Shown: positions 18,293 to 35,637 of the stretch, in pieces | Layout of the letters: each line of letters starts with the position of its first letter | How positions within the stretch are numbered: the stretch's first letter is position 1 | Assembly: GCA_964404285.1 (NCBI GenBank) | Contig: CAYOJK010000001.1 | Location: 83,797 to 147,796, forward strand | DNA: 64,000 nt | Reading direction: 5' to 3' | Source: an uncultured bacterium | GTDB taxonomy: Bacteria > CSSED10-310 | Notes under the pieces: model-generated | Told to the model about the DNA's origin: nothing | Database searches by the model: none | What the model saw: the letters and a program-made list of their open reading frames with translations, nothing else | Program-made: the position numbers and the translations under genes

Positions 18293-18536
18293 GGAAGAAG
18301 AAATAAGGGTGATGAAACGCTGTAAATTACCAAACAGGCATATAAGAAGATCGTTCACACTATCTGGAAACCCAAAACCAAATTGCAAACATTACTTGAC
18401 ACTAACAACGACCGGATTTATTGACATTGTGATCAGGCTATTCCCGATTGCCATTTAACGTGGGATTTAACATGCTAAATAGGGTGGGACGTGATAATTG
18501 CCAAAGGAAAAATCAAGAAACAGATCAGTATCTTAT

Positions 18537-18830: not shown

Positions 18831-19097
18831 TTTTGACTCATATAAATAGCTGCGGATATAATGATGATGTGTGCGTAAAAAGTAATTTTCAGGAAAATCG
18901 ATGTTGTATTTTCAAGGGTTTGCGAAGGGGATTCGAGCTAAAAACAGGGTTTTTACATTTGCATCAATGATCAGTAGAAGCCAATATATCAGATGTATTT
19001 TAAAATTTTTCATAACCTCTCCTTTTTACTCGCCTTTTTCATCATGTCCTCAAGATTTTCTTTTATTCGAGCAGGAGTGAAGTGAGGTGGTCAAGTA

Positions 19098-19134
19098 AAA
19101 ACGGACAGAATCATTAAATGTGACAATTTCATGG
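19098..19134 (-). pseudogene. Remnant 5' end of a paralogue of the 167-aa RHS-adjacent (immunity-like) gene
   Basis: About 37 bp here match 27417-27453 at ~85% identity. It encodes MKLSHLMILSVFT followed by a stop, versus MRLSHLTILSVFFMF... for the intact gene at 27451. Confidence 0.5.
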
Positions 19135-19638: not shown

Positions 19639-20213
19639 TTCTTTCGTTTCCGGGTCGATGGATTTTGTAAAGCGGCAAGATAACCGGCCCGCGCTTCCGA
19701 GCGCATAAACCACATTATAGCTCCAATCAGCGCAGGACCGAATAGAAACAGAGCATCACAAAAACCGACCCCCTCATTTTTCTCATTTTTACCTGATCGC
19801 AGTGAATCAATTAGATCGATAAAATAACTTATGATCAGCGTTACTATAAGAAATTGCGCATACACATATTTTGTGAACAAAGCGATAAGCAGCAATATTC
19901 CAGTTGTGATTTTAGATTTCTTGCCCGTTCCCGCCGCCGCTAAAAGTGTCAATACCGTAATAAATGCGCCTTGCATTTCGAGCATCGGTTGTGCTGCGTA
20001 CAGTGTCATCATTGGGGAAGTGATAGACAGAACCAAGGCAATCAAACCGGCGGTCCACGCAGCTCCTGGCGCTGCACTCTTACGGGCCGCCCATATCGTC
20101 GCAGCGATTGTCCCCACCCAGAAAATCAACGACAATAAACGAGACGATAAAAAAGATGGACCGCCTATGAAAAATAAAACGGCAAGAATCCACGAATGAA
20201 GAAACGGCCACAA
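19623..20213 (-). CDS. hypothetical polytopic membrane protein
   Basis: 196-aa ORF with 5-6 hydrophobic helices and a TTG start; its stop lies inside the 60-bp repeat. There is no motif evidence. Confidence 0.35.
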   Translation of the reverse strand: MWPFLHSWILAVLFFIGGPSFLSSRLLSLIFWVGTIAATIWAARKSAAPGAAWTAGLIALVLSITSPMMTLYAAQPMLEMQGAFITVLTLLAAAGTGKKSKITTGILLLIALFTKYVYAQFLIVTLIISYFIDLIDSLRSGKNEKNEGVGFCDALFLFGPALIGAIMWFMRSEARAGYLAALQNPSTRKRKKCFRR

Positions 20214-20448
20214 ATTCTGCGATTTCGTGGCAATTACAAAAGCTCGAAAATCATGATTTTTTAGCGCTGATTAAATATTCAAACCATTAAGGCTATGGTC
20301 GGCTCCATCCCATGTCGGCGGCCCTTGCGTCAAAATGAGGGCTTTGTAATTTATCAAGCAGGTTATTGCGAGGATGCCTATTATTATGACCGAAATTAAT
20401 GATCTGTTTTTGTTTGCAATAGGGTTAAGACTAATCATTAGGCTTATG

Positions 20449-20925
20449 TTAATTTATCGAGACGAAAAGAGTCAGACCTTTAATAATAGCCGTTGCATCC
20501 AGTTCCAGGTTCACCTTCGAGGTTCCGTTCATGTCCGGTGCGTATTTCTGCAATCTTTCGAGGAGTTCCAGGTTGCTTACCGGCACATAAGAAGTCGAAA
20601 GTACGGCCCGACACTCGCGCCCGTCCATCCGGACCAAGAATTCCTTGTCCTGGGAGAGCTTTTGGAGCCATCGGTTCACGTTCTGCGCCCGAAGATCTAC
20701 GAGATCATCATCGCACCGCCGGAGGTATCCGGCCTGCACGCCGATCCGGTTCGCGAGCGTATTGAGGGCCTGGGATTGCAACGGCGATGAATTCATGAAT
20801 CCGCTTAACTTCATCGTGCCGTCCGGGTTCATCCGGATCTCGGATACTGGCAATGTCATGTCGAAGAACCGCTTTTCCCTTTCCCGCAACGTCTCGATTG
20901 CTTCAGATATGCTGATCAGTTTCAT
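20449..20925 (-). CDS. hypothetical protein (GC-rich mobile module), translationally coupled to the Cas4-like nuclease
   Basis: 158-aa ORF starting MKLISISEAIE with an AAAGGAGG RBS; its ATG overlaps the stop of the upstream nuclease gene. The six-frame ORF continues upstream to 21012. Confidence 0.55.
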   Translation of the reverse strand: MKLISISEAIETLREREKRFFDMTLPVSEIRMNPDGTMKLSGFMNSSPLQSQALNTLANRIGVQAGYLRRCDDDLVDLRAQNVNRWLQKLSQDKEFLVRMDGRECRAVLSTSYVPVSNLELLERLQKYAPDMNGTSKVNLELDATAIIKGLTLFVSIN

Positions 20926-21731
20926 GCTGCCACCTCCTTTACGTGGAACTGCCGCATCCCGGAATTTCCTTTCCATTCGATGCATTCCTGAAGATACTCG
21001 CAGTCCGTGCACATCCAGTTTGGCGTCGGGAAGAAGATCCCGGTGCAGATTCCCTGCAACACGGCATTCGCGACATTGAACAGCCGGACATAATCGCTTT
21101 CCGTCCGCTGCACCTTGAAGCTCACAATTCGCGTCTGCTTGGACTTCGTGATGTTGTCCAGCCTGATTCCCGGCTCGATCCGGTCGAACAAGTAGCGGAA
21201 CGCGTAGCTATACGCAGTGAGCTGAAGGCTGGCGTTCACCGTGCTCTCGTCCATGACACGCGCCGATGTCTTGTGCTCGACAATGGTATCGTCGGATTCC
21301 AGCAGGTCGATCACGCCCTTCAGATCCATGTCGAGTATTTCGCCAGTTTCCGGATTCACAAGTGGAATCCTAAACTCTACTTCTACGTCCAGCGGCTTTT
21401 TTTCCGGAAGATTCTCCATGTACTTGAGGATCATCCTCTGGCCGGTTTCGGTGAGTGAATCATGGTTCTGTCCGTCCTTGAACCGAACGTTTTGAAACTT
21501 CCATGCGTACCAGTCTGCCTTGAATATCCGGGCAACTTCTTCCTCGGAGATTTTCGGAGCATGATCTATCCGCCGGCGATGGAGCCACTCAAGCGCGGCA
21601 TGGAAAGAGCTTCCGAATGCCAGCGCAGCAGGCTTGAATTTCGGCTCGATCTCGTCGATGTAGGAAAACCTGTATTTCAAGCTGCACATCATATACAAGT
21701 TGATTTGGCTGACGCTGATGTAATCACGCAT
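20922..21731 (-). CDS. Cas4-like PD-(D/E)XK nuclease with Fe-S cysteine cluster (RecB-family exonuclease)
   Basis: The N-terminus has QINLYMMCSLKYRFSY (the Cas4 motif I region with the first Cys). The core has D...EHK, and the C-terminus has CTDCEYLQEC, so the four Cys spacing resembles the Cas4/AddB Fe-S cluster. AGGAGG RBS; the ATG at 21731 sits just downstream of a TTG. Confidence 0.7.
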   Translation of the reverse strand: MRDYISVSQINLYMMCSLKYRFSYIDEIEPKFKPAALAFGSSFHAALEWLHRRRIDHAPKISEEEVARIFKADWYAWKFQNVRFKDGQNHDSLTETGQRMILKYMENLPEKKPLDVEVEFRIPLVNPETGEILDMDLKGVIDLLESDDTIVEHKTSARVMDESTVNASLQLTAYSYAFRYLFDRIEPGIRLDNITKSKQTRIVSFKVQRTESDYVRLFNVANAVLQGICTGIFFPTPNWMCTDCEYLQECIEWKGNSGMRQFHVKEVAA

Positions 21732-21797
21732 CAATGCCTCCTTTCTGCTTGGCTGGCAGGGAAATTATCCCGTGCCAGCCCGTTTCGATGTTTGCGG

Positions 21798-22271
21798 TTA
21801 CGCCGCCTGCTTGACCATGTCGTCGATCAGCTTGCTCGCCTGGGACTTCGTCACGTCGTTGAGATCATTGACTTTGAGGATCTGGATCAGGGTCGAAAGT
21901 GCTTCGTCGCCCTCGATGCCCCTCTCAGCGAGCAGCCGGAACAGATAACGCCGCTGGGATTCGGTCATCGCGCCGTTCTTCTTCCCGCTGTTCTGTTCCC
22001 GCTTGAACTGGCTCGGAATAACGGAACCGTTGGAGCAGTTTCCCTTGTTCGCCTGGATGACGCTTTCCGGGAGTGTCGAAGCGGGTCTTCCGTTCCCGTT
22101 CGTCCGGCTCTCAAGCTGGCGGGACACGGCTGCTTCCGCCTCCTTGAACAGGTAATCCGCGACTTCCGCGATGTCGTTGAACTCGGTGTCGCATTCCATG
22201 GAGACCGTGAAGGTCTCGTTTTCGTAGTCTCCTGTGGAGACCTTCTTCGAGAAATTGGTCAGGATTCTCAT
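21798..22271 (-). CDS. hypothetical protein (GC-rich mobile module)
   Basis: 157-aa ORF with a strong AGGAGG RBS and no recognisable domain; co-oriented with the nuclease and replication-relaxation genes. Confidence 0.5.
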   Translation of the reverse strand: MRILTNFSKKVSTGDYENETFTVSMECDTEFNDIAEVADYLFKEAEAAVSRQLESRTNGNGRPASTLPESVIQANKGNCSNGSVIPSQFKREQNSGKKNGAMTESQRRYLFRLLAERGIEGDEALSTLIQILKVNDLNDVTKSQASKLIDDMVKQAA

Positions 22272-22607
22272 GGCTTTTACCTCCTTTCCTGACAGGTTCG
22301 GTTACACAGCTTTATTGCTGTCGATTGGGTTATTTATTTGTAAATGAGCGATATCACTCTGGTGATAGCCGATAAAGAAGTGTCCATGCTTGAAGTATGA
22401 ACGCCTCTTCAACGGCCTCCTGCAATCTGCCGGAAACCCATTTCTTGCCGGGAATCCGGCAGATCTGACGACTCTGGCAAGTTTCGGTCATTAAGGACGC
22501 ACTTATGGTGTTTCGGCGCCCCCAGGAAGCCCCAGGAGATTCCTCGCTGGCTCTCGGCAGCCTCTATTGATCCTGGCTTTCAAGAGTAAACGAGGAATGA
22601 CTCTGGA

Positions 22608-23522
22608 TCATTCGGGAATCAAAGCCATGGGACGGTCATAATCGCTGACAGCGCGATACCATATTGGCTCAAAGATGCTTGATGGATTTTCCAAGTTGAT
22701 TCTGTCGAAGGTCGTGAACCAGAAGAAGCCGCTGCCCCTTCCGGAATCGCTGGCCTTTATTGTCGTCCTGATGAGGTTACCCATCCTCCGGTCGTTGGTC
22801 GTGACCGTCAGCACTCGGAAATTCCGCACGCCGTATCTGTCGACATAACCCTTATGCTTCCACCATTCATAATACCCACGCTGCTTCAGCTTGAATTTCC
22901 GATGCCCGATGGTTCCCCTGTCGATCTCCACATACGCGCACATCCTGCCCTTGGGAGTCTGGATGCACATGAACCCGTCCGGAACCAACGGAACCCGAAC
23001 ATGGTGGCCTCTGTCATTTTCAATGAAAATGGTGTCGCCAACAGCCCGATCCTGCTTCCAGAACAGGAAGTCCAGATCTTCACGATCTCGGCATGCGGCA
23101 AGGATCGCTGCCCTGAAGTCGTTTCTTCTCAGCGTATGGTGAAGCAGGAAGTAGTAGTTACGGCTGGAATCCACCCTTGATACTTTTCCCGGTTCTATTC
23201 CGAGCTGTTCTGCAATCAATCTCCGGCCATGCGAGCCGACAACGTATATTGACGGGGGTGAACCTTCGCCAACGAATAACGGGAGATCAACTCGATCAAG
23301 CAATCTGTTTTGCCAGAGCAGGTAAAGCCTGATCCTGGCTGTTTGAAGGTTTGAGTTGATCATGAGCGCGACCTGCTTGGCCGTCGCGAACCTCAGCTCG
23401 GAGACGGATTTGACGATCTGGATGTCGCGCTCAGTTATTTTCATCCTCGGTGGGTTTACCGTGTCCCTCTTGAATCTTGATCTCCGCTTCTTTCTTCTTG
23501 TGAAAAGTGGGTTTCCATTCAT
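22608..23522 (-). CDS. replication-relaxation family protein (Replic_Relax, plasmid/ICE-type)
   Basis: 304-aa ORF. The N-terminal wHTH segment (ITERDIQIVKSVSELRFATAKQVALMI) and overall architecture match the replication-relaxation family. The start overlaps the stop of the upstream small ORF. Confidence 0.65.
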   Translation of the reverse strand: MNGNPLFTRRKKRRSRFKRDTVNPPRMKITERDIQIVKSVSELRFATAKQVALMINSNLQTARIRLYLLWQNRLLDRVDLPLFVGEGSPPSIYVVGSHGRRLIAEQLGIEPGKVSRVDSSRNYYFLLHHTLRRNDFRAAILAACRDREDLDFLFWKQDRAVGDTIFIENDRGHHVRVPLVPDGFMCIQTPKGRMCAYVEIDRGTIGHRKFKLKQRGYYEWWKHKGYVDRYGVRNFRVLTVTTNDRRMGNLIRTTIKASDSGRGSGFFWFTTFDRINLENPSSIFEPIWYRAVSDYDRPMALIPE

Positions 23523-23779
23523 TTTTCTGGATACCTTATGCCGAATGTCTTCGCGTAGAATTTCAGACGGGAGATGAATGAATCGGTTTTGGATCGAGGT
23601 ATGATCGCGATGCTGTTCGCCCTTTCGGTTTCCCTGAGCGCCATACGGATCAATGGCCGGGGAACATTCGAGACGATTTCAAGGAATTGCTTCCAATTCT
23701 TCTCATTGAGTTGCTTCGCCAGGCTTTTTGCTTGAATGCGTGAGATAATTGGATAGAATCGATTTCTTTTTTTTTTCAT
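23519..23779 (-). CDS. hypothetical small basic protein
   Basis: 86-aa ORF translationally coupled to the replication-relaxation gene. Confidence 0.4.
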   Translation of the reverse strand: MKKKRNRFYPIISRIQAKSLAKQLNEKNWKQFLEIVSNVPRPLIRMALRETERANSIAIIPRSKTDSFISRLKFYAKTFGIRYPEK

Positions 23780-23986
23780 TGTCGTTAGTTTTGTTTATCC
23801 ACAAGGAAATGTGGCTGATTAGTAAGGTTTTACGGCAATCAGAGTCGTCCGTTGTTTCTTACTGGAAGCAGTCCGTCGTTGCGTCTCGTAACTTCTAGTT
23901 CATAAATACTTGGTTCTAGTTTCTTCCAAGTGGCACCGGTCAGTGAAATCTTGGAACGGAAGCGGGTTCCGTGTAAAAGCTGTGGA

Positions 23987-24352
23987 CTATTGGCCTGTTT
24001 TTTCTTCCTTCTGGAAGTGGAAGATTGCGAGTCCAGAATGAGGCAGAATGCGGTAGTTAAGCGATGCGAACCGGCCGGACGGCGTTCGCTTTTTCTCAGC
24101 GATATCGATGATCGGCCTTCCGTTTAATCGGAATCTGCTGAGGGATCTTACACGATCCCAGGCTGACGTATGCGAAACCCCGATATCCCTCGCCAACCTT
24201 GCCTGCGATGGATTACATTTCCCGTCCTGGTTCATGTATGTTGCGAGAACGCACAAAGTCTTCCAGTCTCGGTCTGATATTGCCGAGAGCAGCCCGGACT
24301 TCCGGGCTTCTATGTAAAATTTGACGAATATTTTCTTGTTCTGGTCTTGCAT
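23987..24352 (-). CDS. helix-turn-helix DNA-binding protein
   Basis: 121-aa ORF with a wHTH-like segment (QARLARDIGVSHTSAWDRVRSL). Confidence 0.5.
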   Translation of the reverse strand: MQDQNKKIFVKFYIEARKSGLLSAISDRDWKTLCVLATYMNQDGKCNPSQARLARDIGVSHTSAWDRVRSLSRFRLNGRPIIDIAEKKRTPSGRFASLNYRILPHSGLAIFHFQKEEKTGQ

Positions 24353-24455
24353 GATTATTCGATCTGAGCGAATTAGATTACATAAATATTGCTCCGTAGA
24401 ATGGACGAATTATTTTTTCCATTCCAAGTGCGCATGGGTAGCGGTGTAGGACTTG

Positions 24456-24761
24456 CTAGCTGTTGGGCGGATGAGCTTTCTGAGCTGAAATATCTTCCGG
24501 TCGGAAGCCCTCCTGAATGAGTTCATCCCTAGCGTCCCGGGCAAGGTTCGGAAACAACTGGTCGATCCTGGCGTTAAGCAGGAACTGCAACTTCAGAGCG
24601 TTCTTGAGATTCGGCGACTTGAACCCGGTTTCCCAGTAGCCGATTGCCACGGCTGTCTTGTGACCGAGAAGGCTTGCCGCCTTCTTGCGGTTCAGTCCGC
24701 GCAGCTTTCTGACAAGCGCGACTTGGTTTGGAGGATTTGGTTTTATGGGTTTAGTATTCAT
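24456..24761 (-). CDS. XRE-family HTH transcriptional regulator
   Basis: 101-aa ORF with the HTH_3 signature (NRKKAASLLGHKTAVAIGYWETGFKSPNLKNALKL). Confidence 0.75.
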   Translation of the reverse strand: MNTKPIKPNPPNQVALVRKLRGLNRKKAASLLGHKTAVAIGYWETGFKSPNLKNALKLQFLLNARIDQLFPNLARDARDELIQEGFRPEDISAQKAHPPNS

Positions 24762-25082
24762 GGAGCATCCTCCGGATCTCCGGATTTATTAGGTCTCTTA
24801 ATCCTACCAACCTGTCCACAGATACGCTCCCAAAATTGTTTCCCATGAGAAAAAAACCGTCGATCAAAGACGATTCTTTTATCTAAACTATGCGATTTTC
24901 CATGTGGATAACTCGGTCTGAATGTACCTTGACCCGGTACGTGGTACGGGTATTGTACGTACGTTTCTTTTCATCCCGCGCAGGTATTTCCACCTCAAAT
25001 ACTTCCAAAGAGAAGCAAAGTTGCCTGATCTTGCCCGGTATCTCCGTTATGCTGGAAGCAGAAGTAACTTCCAGCAAACAAA

Positions 25083-25259
25083 ATGGAGATTTCAAAAAAG
25101 AAGCTTGAAGAATTCAAGCAAATTATCCGCGAAGACTACGGCCAGGAGCTTTCCGACAAGGAAGCATACCGGGTTGCCAACAAGGTGCTGACAATGTTCA
25201 GGATCATTTGCCAGCCCCAGCCTGAGGACTTCCGAAATAATCACAAACAAGATGCCTAA
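25083..25259 (+). CDS. small ORF (58 aa) overlapping the serine recombinase start; candidate accessory/directionality factor
   Basis: The ATG at 25083 reads through to a TAA at 25257-25259, which overlaps the recombinase ATG at 25252. The product is MEISKKKLEEFKQIIREDYGQELSDKEAYRVANKVL.... It is below the 60-aa cutoff of the supplied track and has no clear RBS. Confidence 0.3.
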   Translation: MEISKKKLEEFKQIIREDYGQELSDKEAYRVANKVLTMFRIICQPQPEDFRNNHKQDA

Positions 25260-26829
25260 ATATTTCGTTTACACGCGCAAATCGACCGAATCGGAGGACA
25301 AACAAGTCCTATCCCTGGAATCCCAGCAAAAAGAGCTGGATAGTTTTGTCGAGCGAGAGAAACTGGAAGTCGTGGAATATATCGAGGGTGAATCGAAGAG
25401 CGCGAAGCAGCCTGGAAGGCCGATTTTCGACAAAATGATCAAGCGGATCGAGAAAGGAGAAGCTGACGGGATCATTGCCTGGCATCCGGATCGGCTTGCT
25501 AGAAATTCCGTTGACGGCGGGAAAATTATTTATCTGCTCGATACAGGCAAGCTGAAAGAGCTGAAATTTCCGACGTACCGTTTCGAGAACGACTCCCAGG
25601 GAAAGTTCATGCTTAACCTGATCTTCGGCCAGTCGAAGTATTACGTTGACAGCCTGAGCGAGAACGTAAGGCGTGGAAACAAAACGAAGCTCGAAAAAGG
25701 CTGGCTTCCGGGCGTCGCGCCCATGGGATACCTGAACGATGTAAAAAACAAGACAATCGTGAAAGATCCAGAAAGGTTTCGGCTGATCAGAAAGATGTGG
25801 AATATGCTGCTTTCCGGCGCGTATTCCGTCCCTGAGATCCACCGGATAGCCTGCGATGACTGGGGCTTTAAGACGAAGAAGTTCAAGCGGACAGGCGGCA
25901 AGGAAATCAGTCGGAGCATGATTTATAGGCTGTTTGAGAATCCATTCTATTACGGGCTGATCAGACGCAATGGCGACACATACCAGGGAGCGCATGAACC
26001 GATGGTGACACTCGCCGAGTTCGAGCGAGTGCAGAGATTACTCGGAAGGGATGAACGTCCAAGATATGAAAAACATGATTTCGCTTATACAGGAATGATC
26101 CGGTGCGCCGAATGCGGTTGTCAGATTACCGCGAGCAATCACAAAAATCGGTTCGGATCTCGGTATATCTATTACCACTGTACAAAACGAAAAAAAGGAG
26201 CCAAATGCTCCCAAAAATATGTGCGATTAGAGGAATTGGAACGGCAGATCCTAAAAATACTGGACGATATTACGATTTCCGATCAGGTCAAGGATTGGGC
26301 TATCCAGTATCTGCGAGAGAAAAATGACAGCGAGATTATTGACCGACAGCAGATATTCAAAGCCCAGCAACGAGCTTATGCAGCCTGCCAGAAGCAACTT
26401 GACGAACTAACCCGGATGCGCCTGAGAGATCAGGTGAACGATTCAGAATATGCCTCCATGAAAAAGGAACTTTTATCGGAACTGATCAGCCTAAAAGAAA
26501 AATTGACCGATACGGAGCATCGGGCGAGTAGATGGTTTGAACTTTCAGAGAAGGCGTTTATATTCGCGAATGAAGCGAAAAAACGGTTCGAGACCGGATC
26601 ATTCAATCAAAAACGGGAAATTGTCCAATCTCTCGGTTTGAACTTTTCATTGAAGGACGGAAAACTGCATGTACAACTGGAAATTCCGTACCTCATAATA
26701 TCGAAAAAACCTAAAAATCGCAGTTGGCAGGCCACAGTAGACATAATCGGAACCTTTTTTCGTAAATTGGACGGTGATTTCCATATTCCAACTTGGACTT
26801 CTGAAAATGAGTCCGCAATCACCCCTTAG
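25252..26829 (+). CDS. large serine recombinase (resolvase/invertase N-domain + recombinase + zinc-ribbon domains)
   Basis: 525-aa ORF with the N-terminal catalytic domain YTRKSTESEDKQVLSLESQ (Ser nucleophile), a DRLAR motif and a central recombinase domain. A Cys pair (CAECGC...HCTKRK) is followed by a coiled coil. Confidence 0.9.
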   Translation: MPKYFVYTRKSTESEDKQVLSLESQQKELDSFVEREKLEVVEYIEGESKSAKQPGRPIFDKMIKRIEKGEADGIIAWHPDRLARNSVDGGKIIYLLDTGKLKELKFPTYRFENDSQGKFMLNLIFGQSKYYVDSLSENVRRGNKTKLEKGWLPGVAPMGYLNDVKNKTIVKDPERFRLIRKMWNMLLSGAYSVPEIHRIACDDWGFKTKKFKRTGGKEISRSMIYRLFENPFYYGLIRRNGDTYQGAHEPMVTLAEFERVQRLLGRDERPRYEKHDFAYTGMIRCAECGCQITASNHKNRFGSRYIYYHCTKRKKGAKCSQKYVRLEELERQILKILDDITISDQVKDWAIQYLREKNDSEIIDRQQIFKAQQRAYAACQKQLDELTRMRLRDQVNDSEYASMKKELLSELISLKEKLTDTEHRASRWFELSEKAFIFANEAKKRFETGSFNQKREIVQSLGLNFSLKDGKLHVQLEIPYLIISKKPKNRSWQATVDIIGTFFRKLDGDFHIPTWTSENESAITP

Positions 26830-26947
26830 GCTTCGTAAGTATAATAGCAGCGGATTAATTAGCTGGCAATGAACACCACTTCCCCTGAGAAGTATTTGTG
26901 GGGATAAAATCTGAATATTTCATCCTCTTTTGATCCTCCTGGGTTTG

Positions 26948-27451
26948 TCATTTCTTCAGATGGAAGACTGTTGTAGCAACTATTGGGTCTATGCAAGGAG
27001 TTGTCTTATATTCATTTAGATTTGTTTTGTCCACCTTTTCTGGCATTTTATATGCTGGTAACGTGAACTTGAGTTCATAGTCACCTTCTGGAAGCTCAAA
27101 GTCTTTTAAGTTTATAGTCTTTTGGCAAACAAGATAACTTGAGCTTGGCAGATAGAAGAAAGTCCTTCCCATTGGGAAATGCACATCTGTAACAAGGAAT
27201 CCTTTGTTAATTGCCGGATCATCTAGTTTGACAAAATGATAAGGTATGTCAGAGCCTACTCTTTCCAAGATCTTATCATCGAGAATACAACCCTCGGCAT
27301 CATCTGCACACATCAATTTAAGATTAATCTGCATTTCTTCACATTCATAAAATGTCTTTTTCTCCAGTTCGATTTCCATCTTTACCTGGCTATATGCAAT
27401 TTGGTGGAACATGAAAAAAACGGATAGTATCGTTAAATGTGACAATCTCAT
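26948..27451 (-). CDS. secreted small protein, candidate immunity protein for the RHS C-terminal metallopeptidase toxin
   Basis: 167-aa ORF with a signal-peptide-like N-terminus (MRLSHLTILSVFFMFHQIAYSQ). Its ATG overlaps the RHS stop codon (ATGA), indicating translational coupling. Confidence 0.5.
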   Translation of the reverse strand: MRLSHLTILSVFFMFHQIAYSQVKMEIELEKKTFYECEEMQINLKLMCADDAEGCILDDKILERVGSDIPYHFVKLDDPAINKGFLVTDVHFPMGRTFFYLPSSSYLVCQKTINLKDFELPEGDYELKFTLPAYKMPEKVDKTNLNEYKTTPCIDPIVATTVFHLKK

Positions 27452-30400
27452 GGTAACTCCTTTGTTGGGCTTAATCTATTCGTCCTCCTTTGCCGTTTGT
27501 CATAAAGCTTCACCTCCTGAAGGACCTTTTTGATATAGGGAATATTTCTAATCTCTTCAGGTCTCTTATTATGGGGCTCATACTGTTTTTTTAGAACCGT
27601 ATAATCATATGCTTCCTGTGCAGCAGTCCCCAGGTTGCTGATTGCGTCTTCTGCGTGCCCAATCTCATGTATCAATACACCTGCTAACTTTTTGTTTCTT
27701 GTAACGAGCACGTCCTCGACGGTGATTGTAACGCCGTATAGAACTGTTAAATCGGGATTTATAGTATCTGTCACTTTAGTCCCTGTGCTATCAAGTTTCA
27801 TTGCGGGAGAAATCCTTGCTTTATGTGTTCCTTCGGCTGGTATACCCGTTGGATCTACAAGGTTCTGGCCAGATGTTATAGTTAAGTCTGGATTTTGAGT
27901 TCCTCTATATTTAGCAAGAGTGCTTTTTACTGTTGGAGATGCATTTTCTAAACTTAAAACCATTCCCTCCAATGCTTTTGAATGGGGTCCTCTGAAAAAT
28001 ATTTCAAGACCGTTAGGATCTGTGAAATTTACAGGGTTATTTTGGCAAAATGTATAGCGGTTCCAACTTTGCGGGTTTTCCAAATATCCTTTTATAGCAT
28101 CAGGACTTAAAAACCTTGGAGGCAATTCATAGTTTGTTTGCTCGGTGATGGCATTAAGATAACGAGCGTTGAAATAGTGTTTCTGGGTTGTAGATTCGAA
28201 CAGTTTACCAGTGTATCGAATATCTTGTGCGGAAAACACCGGACTTCCAAGATCATCAAAATCTGCGCCAAAGGGCTCGTAATTGTGCACCTCATATGGC
28301 AGGCCGCCTGTTTGCTCCGGCCATACTATTGTGGCAACATCATTAGTGAACGCCATTGGGGAGCCAAGGTGATTAAGGTGCGCAAAAATGATAGTAGTTG
28401 TTGCTCCATCATCTGTAACTCTTACTAAGAGTTCTCCACCTAAATAAATATTATCAATGAAAAGCATTGCTGATGTATCGAACTCTGATAGTAAAAGTTC
28501 TCCGAGATATGAATAAATGAATGTGTTGCTTCCTTCTGCCTTGTAAATTCTCTTATCTATTCCGTCATATCGGTATTGAACTGTAGAGTCGGTATCGATC
28601 AGTTTCCCTAGCTCATCGTAGGTGTAAAGATAAATGCTGTCATCGGTCATATTGCCGTCAGCATCATGAGTAACGCTGGCAATCTTGTTATTGGAATAGG
28701 TGAAGCTTGAGGTGTCTGAGGGATTGGTTTTGGCAACACTCAGAATATTGCCCACGCTGTCATAGGAATAGGTGAAATTCCTGCTCCCAAGTCCGGTGGC
28801 CGTCTCAATCCTGTTCAAATTGTCATACGTGAAGGTGGTTGTTCCAAGTTCGGTGATGTTACCAAAGGCATCATAGGCAAAACTATCGTTCACTAAATCA
28901 TCAACGCCGATTTGCGTGACCCAGCTCGATGGCCGATTTCGAACATCATGAGAAATTGTCGTTACAACTCCATTGCCAAACACATACTCTTCAAGCCCGC
29001 CTGCCGGATTGTGCAGGAGACCATTTGCCATGGTCTGTGTTCCGGAACTCCCGGTAAGAGATATTGTTTCCAGTAGATTTGTTCCCGCTCCATATGTGTA
29101 AGAAACATCGATTCCGGACGGATAAACGATATTGTTGAGGTTCCCCAGCGTGTCATATCCAAAGTAATAACTTGCAGTCAGTGCTGGACTTGCAAGGTTT
29201 ACATCTTTTAATAGATTGCGTCCCTGGACATCAAATTCCGGCCAGACTAAAATGCTCTCCTCGTTAAGAGACACACCTTTACGCACTACAGCACCGGTTC
29301 GGTGATTGAAAGCCTCCACATAAAAACCTGGAGCGTCATCACCGGTAAAATTCAATATGTCATCTCCATCATAGTAGTAGTCCACCTTGATTTGATCTGC
29401 TCCGCTGCCGGCATTCTTTGAAGTTAATCTGTAGATCTCATCATACGTGAAGCTGATAACCCTGCCAGAAGCTTTGGAGATTGTCTCGACTTGGCCGGAA
29501 TTATAATAGGTGTAAGTGACGGTGCCTGTTTCCGGATGTGTCTCGCTTGTCAAGCGCCCTAGGCCGTCATAGATAAACGTCCGGTCAGAACACGTCACAT
29601 CATTGGGATGATCTACCAACGTCAGATTATCCAGGACATCATATCCATAGTCGAAAAGCTTGCTGTCGGCATCGGTAATCTGATCCAGCCTGCCCAGAGC
29701 ATCATATAATTTCACTGTTGTCTGGGTTCCTCTAGTAATAGTCACTTCATTTCCGTCATAGGAATAGGTCGTTGTTCCGTCCGGATCAGTCACGTCAATC
29801 AACCTGTTGAGGGGGCCATATGTGTAATACATTCCGTCTGTTGAAGAAGACGAAAATGATGCTTCCGAGATGAAATTTGGATTCCCGACAGCATCGTATT
29901 CCTGATTAATGTAGGATGGCCCGGCTTGGTCGCTCGGAATTATGGTCTGTTTCAATCTGCCTAGAGCGTCGTAATTGTAGGTTATAGAATACGATCCCTG
30001 TGTTGATGTTACCTGTCCGCCAGTCACATCATATGTCAGAGCCGTTTGCAGGTCTGAGGGTGGTGTTATCTGGATCAAATGCCCCAGATCGTCATAAACA
30101 TAATTCGTCGTGTTCCCGTTCGGATCGGTGATGCTTGTCACTCGGCCTGTATCCGGGTCAACTCCTTGTGAAAACGTCATGTAACTTGAATCCGGCAACT
30201 GCTGAGGAGTGGTGATTTGAGAAATGGTTCCGGCATTCCAGGCAAATGTAGTCACCTTGGCTTGTGCATCTGTAATCGTGTAAAGATTGCCTGCATCTCC
30301 TGCTGAAGTGTAATAAGCATATCCCACTATAATGTCAGGGGATCCGGTGGACGGATCTGTCCACTGATTCACCGACTGCAAGCGAGTAAATTTGGGGTCA

Positions 30401-33400
30401 CCTAGACTACTGAAATACTCACTTCGTGTTCTGGATTTGACTGTGCCACCGGTGTTCCCCTCTATTATTTCTTCTTGGTAAACTCCGCTCAGAAAATTGG
30501 CTGTCCTGAAGTTAGAATATCCGGAACAAGCACTTTCCCAGACATAAATGTAGCTGGTCGTCCTCTCAGCGGTATCGGAGTAGTTGTATTCGATCACATT
30601 TCCAGGCATTCCGAGAGCCACATAATTCTCAAGGTCTGCCAGATCCCCATCGGCACCTGGATAGATGTATTCTATTTTGGAGCTTACCTGTCCGCGGGAT
30701 TCCTGTTGCTTCAATAGCGGAACCTGGCTTGAATACAGGTTTTGATTGTGACCAGGTTCTTGCGAAACGGTTTTAATGAGTTGCGAGATCCTTCCCCCTT
30801 TTGTGGTGCCATGTAGAATTGTATCAGTTTGAGTTATCACCGGGAAATGGACATACTCCCGGTCATTGTTTAGTTTACGCCACCTGGAAAGCCGCCTGGA
30901 CTCATAGGTTTTTGTTTCCGTCTTTACTGGCGATCCCCCGGATACCAGACCATCATAGTAGATAATCTCCGCGGACAATCCGATTTTCCACTCCGCGATA
31001 TCCCCGAGATCTGTGGAGTAATAATTCCAGTAGCGATATTGCGTGTCATTACCCAAGGGGTCGTTCACAACCGTATACTGATCCAGCGGGCCATAGGTCG
31101 CGATGCTGTAGGTTGTTGTTCCTGCCGTGACATCTGAGCCGTCTGCCGTTCTGGAAACTATCGAGATGTCTGCGTAGGTTCGATCATAGATGTTGCTTCC
31201 ATCGAAAGCTTTCAGGTGGAACTCGTGCTCTTCATGGGCATATGTGATGGTGCCGCCAGTTGGAAGCAGAATATCTGTCAGAACTCCGAAGGCCGGTGAT
31301 GCAATATCACCGTCATAGCTGTATGCAGTAGACATGTCGCCTGGATCTCCGCCAGTTCCGTTTGCACGAGCAATAACCGTATCCAAAGCGTTCCTGCCAT
31401 AACCGAACTCTGTGACTGAATATTCAATATAGACGCTGTTGTTCGGGCCTCTTATTTGCGTCAGAAATCCGGATGCGTAATCAAACTCAACGACTCTGCT
31501 ATAGGTGTCGGTCACGTTGTCCACGACCATACGTCCGCCTTCAACTCCGTAGGCGATGGAGATACGATTACCGCTTACTCCATCAGCATCCGCGCTCCGG
31601 ATCTCGCTGACCGCAGCGCAATCCTTCTGCCAGCACTCAACCAGATTGGTCTCCGTATAAAAATCTGAGCGATCGAAGTAGTATTTTATCCCGCTGGTCG
31701 TTGTCAGGAGAAGATCATAGGCCAGCCCGCTGACGTTGATTTTTTCAAGCTTCCACAAGTCACTCGTATATTTTGGATATCCTCCCTGACTTCCTGAATG
31801 TGGCACTTCATATGCGACATGCCGGGACCCGTCAGGCATCACGATGACAGGCGTATCGCTATCCATATTTAGGATTTTCCCAAAATGAATATCCCAACCA
31901 AGACCAAGACAGGTTTCCGGGATGAATTTTTGAGTGAAAATATTGTCGTCACCCCACGGCGTCCGCTCTTTGATGCAGCTGCTATATGTCCTCAAAACAT
32001 TTACGTCCAAACCGCCTTTGCCCGACAGATGGAGGTCGGTATAAGTCAGGTTTACCTTCCCGGTGAATGTATCGATAGACTCTTCCGGCATTCCGGCCAG
32101 ATTGACATGGTTGGCATCGAATCCTGGCGTTGAAAAATGTTCAGGATAATACACGTAATCATCCCCTGGATGCCCTCGATCTTTATTCGTGCTGATCCAA
32201 CAGAAATTGGCTACTCCGACAGGGTTGTCTGCCGTCAGTGTCACATATTCCGGATTCGGATAGGCATAGATGCTGCTCTTCTCGGCAGTGACGGTATAGG
32301 ATGCGGGGAATGTTCCGGGATTGAGCGCAAAGTAGTAGTCTCCTTCTGTTGTGGTTTCTCTTGTCAGCCCGCCAGGATTCAGCGTTATTGTGGCTCCGCT
32401 GACCGGGCCTGTGGGAGAACGCACCTTGCCGTGGATCATTGCACATACAACCTGGATATCACGCTCATATGTCCTGGGTTCGGAAACGACAACCGTTTCC
32501 ATAGATTCCTGGCAATCATCGACTAGAGCAACAACATAATACGTTCCCAGGGGAAGAATTGTCGGGTCATCTGCTGTGGTGTATACGCCTTCTACATTGG
32601 TTTGAACAGTGAAGTAGAAGTCTTCCACCAGATTTATAACAATTACATCCTCTCCGGAGCCGACAGGCGTTTCTCCGGGATATTCACCGATTGTAACCGT
32701 TCCGGTAATAACCGGTTTTTCAAGATAGACTTGAAAATAGACAGGGGAGCCAAAGTCTGCGTTGGCGCAGGTTGCCCGAACCCAGATATCTCCCTCATAG
32801 TTCGGTAACGGGCCGATCCATGAGGCATTACCCTCTGAGTCTGTGGTTACATTATCAAGTAAGGTGTAAGAACCATACTGCGTTGTTGACCATTCAAAAA
32901 CGACATTCTCACCGGGGACACCTGAAAGCGGATCGTCTGTGGCTATCAATAATTTTGGTCTCTTCTGAGGATCTCCAACATACTCCGAGCTATAACACCA
33001 AGCGTAATAATCGTAACCGGTTCCTACTGCCCAAAGGCCAAGGCCATAACTGGACGGACTCGCTGAGAACCAATCCTGAACCAAACCGGACGGAAGATCG
33101 TAATAATTATACTGGTCATCGACGATTGTAAAATCTTCGCCGGGATTGATCTCATACCAGTCAGGTCGAGTATTCCATGTCACTGAAGTCTCATACCAGT
33201 CTTCGGTAACATTGAACATCCATCCATGCAAAAGAGTTGACGACGGATAAGTATCGTAAACGTAAAGCCTCAGGGTGCCACCCAAGACATTGTATGGATA
33301 TGAGGGGTTATTAAACTTAAGATACGTGTAAGCTTCCCTGGGCTGCGTGACAACTATTCTTCTTCCGAAATTCAAGTCTGTGCCGTTAAGGTTCTGATCG

Positions 33401-34554
33401 GGCCATCTCTGATCCACAAAAGCATCATTTGTCGGCTCAACCTCTGTTGTGTAAACTAGCCGAGCGACAAGCGGCTCTTCCAGGTCTTTTGTGGGGACAC
33501 CGGATTGATTGTTGCCGCTGGCCATGGTCAACATCGTGGATTGGGCAAAGGTCGCCGGAATGGATAGAGCCAGCAAGATCGCGATTGATAAAACGGCCTT
33601 TCTTCTCATTTTCATAACTCCTCCGATGAGAAACAGGGCAATAAAAATTCCCCAAATGCTCATGCTCGGCAGTGGGGGAAGCACATATTCAAACCATCCC
33701 ATATCAAAATCTGAACTCCAATAAGGGTATTCATCACCCTGGTCTGTTCCCGCATCGAAGCAGGGAGACATCTCATTGATTCGGTAGTTCGAATCCCAAA
33801 GCGGGTCTTGGCTGATGCTGTTCGGACCGGCTGAGCAACCAACATAGTTGTCGTCCAAATTATTCCAGACATCGTTATAATCCAGTGTGGGAAGGGCTGA
33901 TCCGGAGCACCGGATTCCGGCCGTTCCCATCCCTGTCTGGCCGTTTCCCGCGACGATGTTGTCCTGAATGTCTGCTGATGACTCATAAGCCCGGATACCG
34001 TCGTTACTGTTGCTTGCGATGGAATTATAGTGCACAAAGGCTGACGAATAGACCAGTTCAAGCCCGATTCCCCCGTTTTCAGCGATCAGGTTTTTATGAA
34101 TAATGCCATCACCGAGGAGATAGAGTCCGCCTCCTGCATTGTTGATTATCCGGTTGCCAACGACTTCAACCGTTTCGAAATATCCATGGACGGCAAATCC
34201 AGACGAGCTTCCTCCGGTTATTGTGAACCCTTCCAACCTTGAGTCGTTTGCCAACTCTACAACAGGAAATGAACCGTTCCCGTCAATTACCGTGACTCCC
34301 GACTTATAGAAATAGTCATTGTAACCATCCGTTCCCTGGTCATAACTTTTCAGGGTTACTCCATCTTTCATCGTGACTTGCTCCTGGTAAGTTCCCGGAT
34401 AAACGACAACTTCATCCCCATATTCCGCGGCTATCAAAGCTTCATGGATAGTTGGATAATCCTGACCGCTGGGGCCAACTGTGATCGTGGCTGCAAATGA
34501 TGAAAAAGAATACACCAAGGTAATTAATAAAAGCATCAGGATTGCCAGTTTCAT
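27448..34554 (-). CDS. RHS/YD-repeat polymorphic toxin with C-terminal HExxH zinc-metallopeptidase toxin domain, fused in frame to an N-terminal ~313-aa parallel beta-helix protein
   Basis: Single 2368-aa frame. Residues 1-313 carry signal peptide 1, a pectate-lyase-like beta-helix and a C-terminal hydrophobic anchor followed by RRK. Residues 314 onward begin MKMRRKAVLSIAILLALSIPATFA (signal peptide 2) preceded by a GGAGGA RBS, followed by Ig/carboxypeptidase-regulatory-like domains and many YD repeats (YTYDALGRL, YGYDVLDNL...). The RHS core ends NPVNFTDPNGL, and a ~180-aa C-terminal domain has LIHEIGHAED. Confidence 0.85.
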   Translation of the reverse strand: MKLAILMLLLITLVYSFSSFAATITVGPSGQDYPTIHEALIAAEYGDEVVVYPGTYQEQVTMKDGVTLKSYDQGTDGYNDYFYKSGVTVIDGNGSFPVVELANDSRLEGFTITGGSSSGFAVHGYFETVEVVGNRIINNAGGGLYLLGDGIIHKNLIAENGGIGLELVYSSAFVHYNSIASNSNDGIRAYESSADIQDNIVAGNGQTGMGTAGIRCSGSALPTLDYNDVWNNLDDNYVGCSAGPNSISQDPLWDSNYRINEMSPCFDAGTDQGDEYPYWSSDFDMGWFEYVLPPLPSMSIWGIFIALFLIGGVMKMRRKAVLSIAILLALSIPATFAQSTMLTMASGNNQSGVPTKDLEEPLVARLVYTTEVEPTNDAFVDQRWPDQNLNGTDLNFGRRIVVTQPREAYTYLKFNNPSYPYNVLGGTLRLYVYDTYPSSTLLHGWMFNVTEDWYETSVTWNTRPDWYEINPGEDFTIVDDQYNYYDLPSGLVQDWFSASPSSYGLGLWAVGTGYDYYAWCYSSEYVGDPQKRPKLLIATDDPLSGVPGENVVFEWSTTQYGSYTLLDNVTTDSEGNASWIGPLPNYEGDIWVRATCANADFGSPVYFQVYLEKPVITGTVTIGEYPGETPVGSGEDVIVINLVEDFYFTVQTNVEGVYTTADDPTILPLGTYYVVALVDDCQESMETVVVSEPRTYERDIQVVCAMIHGKVRSPTGPVSGATITLNPGGLTRETTTEGDYYFALNPGTFPASYTVTAEKSSIYAYPNPEYVTLTADNPVGVANFCWISTNKDRGHPGDDYVYYPEHFSTPGFDANHVNLAGMPEESIDTFTGKVNLTYTDLHLSGKGGLDVNVLRTYSSCIKERTPWGDDNIFTQKFIPETCLGLGWDIHFGKILNMDSDTPVIVMPDGSRHVAYEVPHSGSQGGYPKYTSDLWKLEKINVSGLAYDLLLTTTSGIKYYFDRSDFYTETNLVECWQKDCAAVSEIRSADADGVSGNRISIAYGVEGGRMVVDNVTDTYSRVVEFDYASGFLTQIRGPNNSVYIEYSVTEFGYGRNALDTVIARANGTGGDPGDMSTAYSYDGDIASPAFGVLTDILLPTGGTITYAHEEHEFHLKAFDGSNIYDRTYADISIVSRTADGSDVTAGTTTYSIATYGPLDQYTVVNDPLGNDTQYRYWNYYSTDLGDIAEWKIGLSAEIIYYDGLVSGGSPVKTETKTYESRRLSRWRKLNNDREYVHFPVITQTDTILHGTTKGGRISQLIKTVSQEPGHNQNLYSSQVPLLKQQESRGQVSSKIEYIYPGADGDLADLENYVALGMPGNVIEYNYSDTAERTTSYIYVWESACSGYSNFRTANFLSGVYQEEIIEGNTGGTVKSRTRSEYFSSLGDPKFTRLQSVNQWTDPSTGSPDIIVGYAYYTSAGDAGNLYTITDAQAKVTTFAWNAGTISQITTPQQLPDSSYMTFSQGVDPDTGRVTSITDPNGNTTNYVYDDLGHLIQITPPSDLQTALTYDVTGGQVTSTQGSYSITYNYDALGRLKQTIIPSDQAGPSYINQEYDAVGNPNFISEASFSSSSTDGMYYTYGPLNRLIDVTDPDGTTTYSYDGNEVTITRGTQTTVKLYDALGRLDQITDADSKLFDYGYDVLDNLTLVDHPNDVTCSDRTFIYDGLGRLTSETHPETGTVTYTYYNSGQVETISKASGRVISFTYDEIYRLTSKNAGSGADQIKVDYYYDGDDILNFTGDDAPGFYVEAFNHRTGAVVRKGVSLNEESILVWPEFDVQGRNLLKDVNLASPALTASYYFGYDTLGNLNNIVYPSGIDVSYTYGAGTNLLETISLTGSSGTQTMANGLLHNPAGGLEEYVFGNGVVTTISHDVRNRPSSWVTQIGVDDLVNDSFAYDAFGNITELGTTTFTYDNLNRIETATGLGSRNFTYSYDSVGNILSVAKTNPSDTSSFTYSNNKIASVTHDADGNMTDDSIYLYTYDELGKLIDTDSTVQYRYDGIDKRIYKAEGSNTFIYSYLGELLLSEFDTSAMLFIDNIYLGGELLVRVTDDGATTTIIFAHLNHLGSPMAFTNDVATIVWPEQTGGLPYEVHNYEPFGADFDDLGSPVFSAQDIRYTGKLFESTTQKHYFNARYLNAITEQTNYELPPRFLSPDAIKGYLENPQSWNRYTFCQNNPVNFTDPNGLEIFFRGPHSKALEGMVLSLENASPTVKSTLAKYRGTQNPDLTITSGQNLVDPTGIPAEGTHKARISPAMKLDSTGTKVTDTINPDLTVLYGVTITVEDVLVTRNKKLAGVLIHEIGHAEDAISNLGTAAQEAYDYTVLKKQYEPHNKRPEEIRNIPYIKKVLQEVKLYDKRQRRTNRLSPTKELP
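27463..27522. repeat. 60 bp direct repeat, copy 2 (inside the last codons of the RHS gene)
   Basis: See copy 1 at 19576-19635. Confidence 0.9.
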
Positions 34555-34790
34555 TACAATTCCCTCCTAACTAAATCAAACGTCTATTGCTGATCATATC
34601 CCCGGAACTGGTCTGAAGTCAATCAACGGTATTTTCTGGTGTGACCGGAGAAAGTTTGACATCATTTACATCCTCGCTGGCAAGGCGCTTTAATGCGTAG
34701 TAAAATACTATGACCGCAGATTTTCCCGGTATCCTCAAAGTCATATCCGTCATCACCAGTTACCCCAAGAAACAACCTGCTTCGGTGAAA

Positions 34791-35042
34791 TTACGGATTA
34801 CGTGGGTCATACCCAATAAACTCGATAATCTTTAGGATCAGTTTGTCCTGGGGATACGAGTGAGACATCTCCCAGTTGTGAATGGTGCCTTCGTCAACAC
34901 CGATTATGTTGGCAACATCTCTCTGGAAAAGCTTCAAGTCCATCCGTCTCCTGCGGATATGGTCGCCAATCGTTCTTGGCGTTTCCGGGTACGAGAAAGG
35001 CAATGGTTTCGAGGCTTTGAGCGTAAGTGGCAACTGTTCCAC
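34791..35042 (-). CDS. XRE-family HTH regulator at the island edge
   Basis: 83-aa ORF with an HTH_3-like segment (IRRRRMDLKLFQRDVANIIGVDEGTIHNWEMSHSYP). Its GTG start abuts the right comM repeat, so the start is uncertain. Confidence 0.55.
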   Translation of the reverse strand: MEQLPLTLKASKPLPFSYPETPRTIGDHIRRRRMDLKLFQRDVANIIGVDEGTIHNWEMSHSYPQDKLILKIIEFIGYDPRNP

Positions 35043-35044
35043 GC

Positions 35045-35637
35045 AACCCTGCCCATGTGGTTATTACTCACATCCGGAAAAAACCTGTTTGTGCAGACCG
35101 GATATCATCGCTAAATATTTGGGGCGGATATCCGGGCCATTGTTGGATCGTATCGACTTACACATTGAGGTCAACGCGGTCAAATTCAGCGATCTGCAGG
35201 ATCGCCGACGAGGGGAATCTTCCAAGTCCATTCGGGAACGAGTGGAAGCCGCTCGACAGATTCAGCAGACGCGGTTTTCGGAATCGGCCTCGTCAAATGG
35301 CAACCTGGCATCACACTGCAATTCTCACATGTCATCCCGTGAAATCCGGACCTATTGCAAGCTCAACAGTGACGGGTATCGTTTGATGGAACATGCCATG
35401 AAAAGGCTGGGGCTGACGGCTCGAGCCTACGACAGAATATTGAAAGTCGCCAGAACCATTGCTGATCTGGCGGATTCCGAAACCATAGAATCGCATCATC
35501 TTGCAGAAGCCATTCAGTATCGTGCGCTGGACAGATCTCACTGGACACAGGCGCATACTTACTGAGTTTGCTCCTCTTCCTCCTCATTACCATTAACCCT
35601 TCAACCGGCACGCCAATCACGGCGTGCCGACCTTTTT
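35045..35637 (+). pseudogene. orphan 3' fragment of comM (right copy of the ~595 bp repeat, putative attR) with its own terminator
   Basis: It encodes the last ~175 aa of ComM ([69 protein letters not shown]...) with several substitutions relative to the intact gene and no N-terminal ATPase domain. A six-frame ORF at 34882-35565 extends upstream into unrelated sequence. Confidence 0.85.

Follow-up and report, generated by a model that had tools for sequence, protein, structure and literature searches.

An RHS polymorphic toxin with Sec-type signal peptides and a predicted gluzincin tip of a rare family, carried with a candidate immunity gene on a comM-integrated island

We describe a giant RHS/YD-repeat gene, and the small gene that follows it, in a 64,000-nt stretch of DNA from an uncultured bacterium of the GTDB lineage CSSED10-310 (assembly GCA_964404285.1, contig CAYOJK010000001.1, positions 83,797 to 147,796 of the forward strand). 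This whole stretch is called the window here, and coordinates are counted from its first letter; homologous proteins and loci are indicated by P and L numbers. From its sequence architecture, the gene product can be assigned securely to the RHS polymorphic toxins. The reading that we favour, with moderate confidence, is that of a Sec-exported toxin, independent of type VI secretion systems (T6SS), whose cargo is a 185-residue metallopeptidase of the gluzincin type belonging to a rare and uncatalogued family. Peptidase activity, autoproteolysis and immunity are inferred for this system. An earlier note on the same DNA had proposed a polymorphic toxin with a zincin-like tip, and this proposal agrees with the RHS/DPxGL architecture, the conserved HExxH with its downstream Glu and the predicted fold.

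The open reading frame (ORF) and its shell are placed as follows:
27448..34554, minus strand: RHS/YD-repeat polymorphic toxin ORF, 2368 residues (ORF list, Pfam, NCBIfam, Shine-Dalgarno sequence)
28006..32082, minus strand: RHS shell, made of a weak DUF6531-like plug, YD repeats and the associated core ending in DPNGL (Pfam, NCBIfam, motif scan)

The ORF covers 7107 nt, and an AGGAGG Shine-Dalgarno sequence lies 7 nt 5' of its ATG (34554). The identical 2368-residue product was found in at least 16 contigs, from independent assemblies, with Y521S as the sole variant. Since the ORF is intact in all of these contigs a pseudogene was ruled out, and since independent assemblies give the same 2368-residue call, so was an assembly artefact as the source of the fused N-terminus discussed below. 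The shell was recognised by Pfam RHS_repeat (E 1e-29, 102.7 bits, cutoff 22) and by TIGR01643 YD_repeat_2x (E 1e-16, 60.3 bits, cutoff 15.8), the precomputed annotation of the protein being TEN_YD-shell. The "dozens of YD repeats" of the earlier note therefore correspond to a real shell, but the count was generous: about 14-17 motifs of the xYxYDxxG type are recognisable by regular expression, and YD dipeptides number 26 against 12.8 expected. That the core ends in a canonical DPxGL was correct. TIGR03696 Rhs_assc_core matches residues 2092-2183 over the full model (positions 1-76, 47.4 bits, cutoff 32.5), and DPNGL occupies residues 2179-2183 (28006..28020), with exactly 185 residues thereafter. 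A candidate for the DUF6531 plug (PF20148) at residues 825-912 stays under the cutoff (21.5 against 24.1 bits). In autoproteolytic RHS cores a DPxGL-type aspartyl-protease motif occurs twice, and it is the second copy that holds the catalytic Asp (Jurenas 2021, PMC8636562). Here the second motif is canonical (D2179) and the first is degenerate (SPDAIKG, residues 2150-2156, with D2152), lying 22, not 17, residues upstream of the second.

The region after DPNGL is the putative toxin tip:
27451..28005, minus strand: C-terminal toxin domain, residues 2184-2368, 185 residues (family alignment, AlphaFold2 model)

An HExxH within the roughly 180 residues past DPxGL had been reported before, and it is indeed there: HEIGH at residues 2296-2300 (27655..27669) is the sole HExxH of the whole 2368-residue protein, and an RPEE motif follows at 27553..27564. 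A word-indexed search of 5.8 billion proteins found no homologue of the domain, and tblastn against PLSDB plasmids gave no match. An exhaustive HMMER scan of 1.84e9 cluster representatives retrieved 30 proteins at E<=1e-3, six of them at E<=1e-10, and most of the 30 relatives are RHS/YD C-termini that start directly after ...NNPxxxxDxxG[LHR]. In an alignment of 24 sequences, 24-47% identical to the query, residues P39, G54, H113, E114, H117, R148 and E151 are invariant (the last five being H2296, E2297, H2300, R2331 and E2334 in full-length numbering), G116, A121 and P149 are near-invariant and D120 is kept in 17 of the 24. An HExxH that is invariant in 24 of 24 members at such low identity is not a chance match, and this explanation was therefore ruled out. 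The family signature, HExGHxxDA followed about 30 residues later by RPxE, is, as read from the alignment, arranged as in gluzincins, in which one helix bears the catalytic Glu together with both His ligands and a helix further on contributes a Glu ligand.

Placement of the tip in a Tox-MPTase or other zincin family, which the earlier note had in view, was not obtained. When the 24 family members were scanned with Pfam, only sub-threshold zincin matches appeared; the commonest was Peptidase_M91 (HopH1/NleD), in 5 of the 24 with a best E of 0.0042, and P0009 reaches 17.1 bits (cutoff 25) over HMM positions 53-126 of 176. None of the Tox-MPTase Pfam models matched any of the 24 members at E<=1. 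By these comparisons the domain lies outside any catalogued Tox-MPTase or M91 model, and the family is rare, has no Pfam or NCBIfam model and is in this sense new relative to the databases. The close subfamily also has a conserved C-terminal tail, PT[KRE]ELP (27448-27475, minus strand), which overlaps the AAGGAG ribosome-binding site and the ATGA of the following gene, and its conservation may be partly a constraint at the nucleotide level. As a separate observation, two independent metagenome contigs, L015 (at 1990-2070) and that of P0005, encode the tip in two overlapping ORFs that are divided just ahead of the HExxH helix; in L015, where assembly coverage is only 1.8x, the division could come from a sequencing error, from a pseudogene or from another cause.

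An AlphaFold2 model of the domain, built from the family alignment, has a predicted local distance difference test score (pLDDT) of 93.9 and a predicted template modelling score (pTM) of 0.88. It is composed of a beta-sheet, a long helix (104-123) with HExxH at its middle and a short helix (149-153) with E151. A zincin fold is thus predicted with confidence, in which E151 (E2334, of RPxE) is probably the third zinc ligand. Comparison of the model with the PDB by Foldseek gave noise only and nothing significant, and therefore the likeness to known structures would be limited to the zincin core of about 95 residues. The possibility raised beforehand, that the domain has no peptidase fold and its HExxH arose by chance, is contradicted by the predicted zincin fold and by the invariance of the motif.

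Immediately downstream of the toxin gene lies the putative partner:
26948..27451, minus strand: candidate immunity protein of 167 residues; signal peptide, three conserved Cys (ORF list, homologous loci, alignment)

Its start overlaps the RHS stop by 4 nt (ATGA) and its AAGGAG Shine-Dalgarno sequence is embedded in the terminal K-E codons of the toxin, which indicates that the two genes are translationally coupled. The protein begins with a signal-peptide-like segment. In L013 a toxin 38% identical to that of the window (P0004) is followed by a 165-residue homologue of the partner (28% identity, E 4e-18), and the toxin of L015 (54% identity) precedes, with the same 4-nt overlap, a partner 40% identical (E 4e-36). 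The three partners share an N-terminal hydrophobic signal and three invariant Cys in each, and this fits a disulfide-bonded extracytoplasmic protein. Co-occurrence and co-divergence in three loci are the behaviour expected of toxin/immunity pairs, so that the 167-residue gene, pointed out earlier as the downstream partner, has been a sensible candidate. These features fit an exported immunity protein and a periplasmic target of the toxin, since an exported partner would imply a toxin acting outside the cytoplasm. The distant toxins P0025, P0028 and P0030 are followed by another kind of gene: the 263-residue product encoded downstream in L014 begins with a signal peptide, as does the corresponding C-terminal part of P0030, neither being related to the 167-residue protein, and the gene after P0028 is of similar size (264 residues). 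The toxin-tip family thus seems to possess two exported partner families.

The partner bears also on a very improbable alternative, namely that the zincin-like domain is not a peptidase, and either serves, with the same fold, as some other hydrolase or binding module that depends on metal, such as an RNase of the YbeY type, or holds a structural HExxH. An exported partner of the disulfide type argues against an RNA or DNA target, and both the HExxH Glu and the downstream Glu are invariant in the family. Together these two residues are the signature of gluzincin peptidases, and this signature is not known from YbeY-type sites.

The N-terminal part of the toxin contains four further features:
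34492..34554, minus strand: signal peptide 1, residues 1-21, MKLAILMLLLITLVYSFSSFA, with the putative cleavage before A (sequence reading, hydropathy)
33670..34491, minus strand: right-handed parallel beta-helix module, residues 22-295 (Pfam Beta_helix at E 5e-9, DUF1565, NosD)
33544..33663, minus strand: hydrophobic hairpin, composed of a transmembrane (TM) segment at residues 298-314, KMRRK and signal peptide 2 at residues 316-337, MRRKAVLSIAILLALSIPATFA, with the putative cleavage before Q (hydropathy, sequence reading)
32944..33426, minus strand: DNRLRE/CBM96 domain of carbohydrate-binding type, residues 377-537 (NCBIfam NF033679 at 75.8 bits, cutoff 34; Pfam CBM96 at E 6e-11; matches spanning residues 369-537)

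Hydropathy reveals three hydrophobic segments (residues 1-21, 298-314 and 319-337), and by manual reading combined with hydropathy residues 1-21 and 316-337 have the n/h/c-region layout of Sec signal peptides. The Beta_helix, DUF1565 and NosD matches cover residues 27-237, and the relatives of this module are standalone secreted beta-helix proteins. One of them, P0036, ends at its C-terminus in a TM segment followed by RRRS; another, P0031 (68% identical), is cut by the contig end and is uninformative. The first 319 residues or so have the appearance of an entire protein, in which a beta-helix stands between a signal peptide and an anchor made of the TM segment and KMRRK, and a GGAGGA lies 9 nt 5' of the internal ATG of M316. 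Judging from this layout, the RHS ORF is an in-frame fusion of a module with signal peptide, beta-helix and C-terminal anchor to an RHS protein having its own Shine-Dalgarno-preceded start and signal peptide. The earlier note had written of signal peptides in the plural, and two are present because of this fusion. A sorting signal of the PEP-CTERM/IPTL-CTERM type was looked for at the TM + RRK junction, with no NCBIfam match at E<=10. Two outcomes of the fusion are possible: a full-length precursor could be inserted as a hairpin with KMRRK in the cytoplasm, signal peptidase then yielding an anchored beta-helix and a free RHS protein, or ribosomes could start at the internal M316 to produce the RHS protein.

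Regarding export, Pfam and NCBIfam (E<=0.01) found no PAAR, prePAAR or other T6SS adaptor in the 2368-residue protein, and among the 35 window ORFs scanned with Pfam there is no PAAR, VgrG, Hcp, Eag-chaperone cluster or any T6SS component, in agreement with what had been noted earlier for VgrG, PAAR and Hcp. The flanks of the mobile island that carries the locus (described below) are housekeeping genes (L25, PRPP synthetase, IspE, DnaK, DnaJ). Full-length relatives (P0026, P0028 and P0008) have signal peptides at their start and RHS repeats only, with no PAAR, and Sec export is the best-supported first step. The ORF at 8630..9250 (minus strand) marginally matches the outer-membrane beta-barrel family OMP_b-brl (29.6 bits, cutoff 28.7), which suggests that the host is probably diderm; in such a cell Sec alone would leave the RHS protein in the periplasm and would cover the first export step only. 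Of the Sec-dependent, WapA/teneurin-like delivery put forward before, the Sec step is thus supported by the signal peptides, but a route by Sec only is not, the host being probably diderm.

It is unlikely, in our judgement, that delivery is carried out by an apparatus encoded elsewhere (T6SS, an extracellular contractile injection system of the eCIS/PVC kind, a type II or type IX secretion system, or another), with the signal peptides only bringing the protein to the periplasm or membrane for loading. Such an apparatus would provide the outer-membrane step that a probably diderm host requires, 64 kb of genome were examined, and several trafficking modes have been listed for RHS-zincin toxins (Zhang et al. 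2012, PMC3482391). However, neither the island nor its flanks contain apparatus genes, and T6SS delivery in particular is disfavoured because the protein has no PAAR, VgrG-binding, Eag-chaperone-type TM or prePAAR region, because cleavable Sec signals do not belong to the features of T6SS cargo and because the three relatives named above have signal peptides and no PAAR.

Several observations weigh against the Sec-exported interbacterial toxin that we favour. Even at E 10, searches of Pfam, NCBIfam and PDB sequences leave the toxin domain unmatched. Its closest homologue, P0001 (47% identity), is a standalone 226-residue signal-peptide protein (L002 9569-10249, also L001) from a metagenome-assembled genome of candidate division CSSED10-310 (PWNJ01000128), the only genome locus found with the family sub-alignment. 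This gene lies between a GNAT gene and mutS, without RHS or partner gene, and its product keeps the C-terminal ...PTRELP tail; when the locus was compared with the window by tblastx, the toxin domain was the sole shared part. An immunity gene therefore does not always accompany the domain, whose substrates might be non-self or extracellular. As for the 167-residue protein, it belongs to no Pfam family and has no homologue by word-indexed search, its single-sequence structure model (pLDDT 39) is unusable, and the candidate immunity role rests on three loci. The signal peptides were assigned by eye and hydropathy only. Finally, there is probably an outer membrane, with no route across it or into a target evident in the 64-kb window, and a T6SS or other apparatus could sit elsewhere in the genome.

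The standalone P0001, without a partner, speaks for a further account, which we also regard as improbable: a secreted or surface protease carrier directed at non-bacterial or extracellular substrates (in the manner of Tc toxins or teneurins, or for nutrient or matrix proteolysis), the partner being a periplasmic inhibitor or a chaperone that silences the protease during export. The beta-helix and CBM96/DNRLRE modules, which are typical of secreted carbohydrate-binding proteins, go in the same direction, and the structural neighbours include host-directed proteases (botulinum neurotoxin light chains, GtgA, NleC). On the other hand, the toxin and its partner have diverged together in three loci, cassettes of the orphan type and scars of recombination are typical of interbacterial polymorphic toxins, and the family is found overwhelmingly as RHS tips.

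On the interbacterial reading, the RHS gene and the immunity gene would form one translationally coupled operon, as the ATGA overlap and the embedded Shine-Dalgarno sequence suggest, and the signal peptides would direct the RHS protein to Sec. The YD shell would enclose the toxin and, by homology with known cores, the core aspartyl autoprotease would cut after DPNGL, between L2183 and E2184; the motif and the TIGR03696 match are observed. From their domain families, the beta-helix and DNRLRE/CBM96 modules may bind surface carbohydrate. The released domain is predicted, from its invariant residues and fold, to cleave an extracytoplasmic protein or peptide in the neighbour cell, with H2296, H2300 and E2334 as zinc ligands and E2297 as general base. 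In the periplasm of the producer the exported, Cys-containing 167-residue protein would neutralise the toxin, as conserved adjacency and co-divergence in three loci suggest, and the whole locus sits on a 17.35-kb serine-recombinase island in comM. A bolder version, which we hold to be doubtful, is that the single ORF gives two signal-peptidase products, an anchored beta-helix and a Sec-exported RHS cocoon, and that this cocoon reaches neighbours without a T6SS and releases an uncatalogued gluzincin at a periplasmic target. If true, it would constitute a distinct T6SS-independent route of RHS delivery in diderms.

The tip and its partner belong to a larger unit, and traces of a similar junction are found elsewhere on the island:
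26948..28719, minus strand: low-GC swappable cassette, in which about 240 residues from the end of the RHS core precede the toxin and its immunity gene (GC step, L015 alignment)
19097..19644, minus strand: scar of a second junction between a toxin tail and an immunity start, from the same family (repeats D2, 87%, and D5, 89%; alignment; ORFs)

At about 28.7 kb the G+C (GC) content drops from about 0.46-0.48 to about 0.37-0.43 and it stays low through the tip and the immunity gene, so that the cassette averages about 0.39 against about 0.47 upstream. L015, which is from another metagenome, carries at 691-2679 a free-standing module with its own start, a hydrophobic N-terminus, an RHS core end of about 240 residues, a tip and an immunity gene, and this module aligns with the window protein from residue 1946 (28719) onward at 54% identity. 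The GC step and the start of the similarity coincide at about 28.7 kb, which delimits an exchangeable unit at approximately 26948..28719; judged by composition and alignment, the tip and its immunity gene form a low-GC cassette of a type that recombination exchanges. The scar consists of 69 nt similar to the last codons of the toxin (27463-27531, 87%) and 38 nt similar to its stop and the immunity start (27416-27453, 89%). The two parts are separated by a 432-nt insert, and the reading frame is extended into a protein with multiple TM segments (ORF 19135..19713). Upstream of the scar there is also a fragment of an ArnT-like membrane protein (19623..20213). Scanning for promoters and terminators gave nothing above chance.

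The island itself and its recombinase are the following:
17699..35046, no strand: integrative island in comM, 17.35 kb (direct repeats, comM duplication, uninterrupted relative)
25252..26829, plus strand: large serine recombinase, 525 residues (Pfam Resolvase, Recombinase, Zn_ribbon_recom)

An intact comM (16646..18217, 523 residues) stands at the left end, and a displaced comM 3' fragment (35047..35565, 95% protein identity) follows the right end. Imperfect direct repeats of about 570 nt, 89% identical in nucleotides, occupy 17699-18272 and 35047-35616, and the island restores comM with a 3' surrogate of its own (17699..18217). In L017, from a related lineage (about 82% nucleotide identity over the left flank), comM is uninterrupted, and its 3' end with about 600 nt downstream matches window 35047-36167 at 92%. 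From the repeats and this uninterrupted site it follows that 17699..35046 is an insertion that brought its own comM 3' end; its GC content is 0.467 against 0.41-0.425 in the flanks. The island location that the earlier note suggested thus has a precise form, with comM direct repeats, a serine recombinase and an uninterrupted site in L017. The recombinase gene is placed mid-island and not at an end, other island genes encode a Replic_Relax protein and a PD-(D/E)XK nuclease, and the RHS/immunity operon makes up 44% of the island, at its right end. In the loci from six other assemblies the recombinase gene also adjoins the immunity gene and the RHS 3' end; four of these recombinase genes are intact, that of L004 is split and that of L007 runs into the contig end. 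In L004 (3623-5143) the interruption leaves a 275-residue remnant and a 228-residue gene on the opposite strand.

Just past the displaced comM fragment, the region 36281-44747 has low GC (0.35-0.39) and encodes a Bro-N protein (PADLOC PDC-S13), a 1268-residue type IIG restriction-modification enzyme and an AAA_14/DUF4143 protein (PDC-S01). The same place in L017 (10423-17572) holds a different set of defence-like genes, namely a helix-turn-helix/M78 pair, an HMUDK-type kinase, a radical SAM protein and a type ISP enzyme. The region downstream of comM looks like a hotspot of defence islands.

Among known systems, the one tested RHS-zincin met with in the literature is that of Salmonella Dublin SED_RS06335, an RHS protein carrying an M91 tip that arrests E. 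coli only from the periplasm and is neutralised by a membrane or periplasmic immunity protein (PMC13556075). The pair SED_RS06335/SED_RS06340 (PMC13556075) resembles the window locus in having an RHS shell, a small HExxH zincin tip and a downstream immunity protein sent outside the cytoplasm, and M91, the family of the Salmonella tip, is the nearest Pfam model to the window family, although sub-threshold as reported above. The Salmonella protein, however, has an N-terminal PAAR, a T6SS cluster and a TM immunity protein, whereas that of the window has signal peptides, beta-helix and carbohydrate-binding modules, lacks a T6SS context and is paired with an immunity candidate that is soluble and exported. 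The third ligand differs too, being reported in Salmonella as an Asp 6 residues past the second His and being probably, in the window, a Glu 34 residues past it. RHS proteins that have signal peptides and small zincin tips, the latter "distantly related to Wss1", were already listed as a class in 2012 (Zhang et al. 2012, PMC3482391). The motifs of the window family (PDL, GATxTI, HExGHxxDA, RPxE) are not those listed in the same work for Tox-MPTase1-5 and HopH1-like families (PMC3482391); for Tox-MPTase1, no such model is among the Pfam matches. Minigluzincins (proabylysin, projannalysin, selecase) and the SprT domains of Wss1 and Spartan are 7-16% identical to the toxin domain, with no relationship at the level of hidden Markov models; Wss1 and Spartan use a third His, and neither these nor the minigluzincins are toxin cargo.

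WapA of Bacillus subtilis and other contact-dependent YD/RHS toxins that rely on Sec, such as WapA of Streptococcus suis (PMC12704120), follow a comparable plan: an N-terminal Sec signal is accompanied by modules that bind carbohydrate or the wall, a YD shell and a variable C-terminal toxin come after these, and an immunity gene lies downstream. WapA acts from a monoderm cell wall, whereas the window host probably has an outer membrane, and the window protein has in addition a second internal signal peptide after the fused beta-helix module. WapA tips are so far known as nucleases. The analogy with WapA appears to be one of function, not of membership.

In enterobacteria, displacement of rhs C-termini and orphan tip/immunity modules were reportedly described by Jackson and co-workers in 2009. 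The window has similar elements, namely a lower-GC cassette of core tail, tip and immunity gene, the free-standing module of L015 and an older junction scar on the island. The scar, however, lies about 8 kb off, across recombinase and replication genes, and not immediately downstream, and the setting is a serine-recombinase island integrated in comM and not a chromosomal rhs hotspot.

The type of system is well known: RHS polymorphic toxins that have a zincin tip and a Sec signal, come with an immunity gene, exchange their cassettes and ride on mobile islands. New with respect to the databases are the tip family, its exported partner families and the fused N-terminus. RHS proteins with zincin tips and Sec signals were predicted in 2012, and only recently has one such tip (M91, delivered by a T6SS) been shown to kill from the periplasm. 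The catalytic signature, the confident AlphaFold2 model and the two partner families make the present family a tractable system for finding the periplasmic substrate of such toxins, and the locus illustrates cleanly how a comM-targeting serine-recombinase island can carry a toxin/immunity cassette. It also raises the question of how a Sec-exported RHS cocoon exits a diderm cell. The general picture of polymorphic toxins is unchanged: the giant RHS cocoon gene would encode an ordinary type of weapon with a new warhead.

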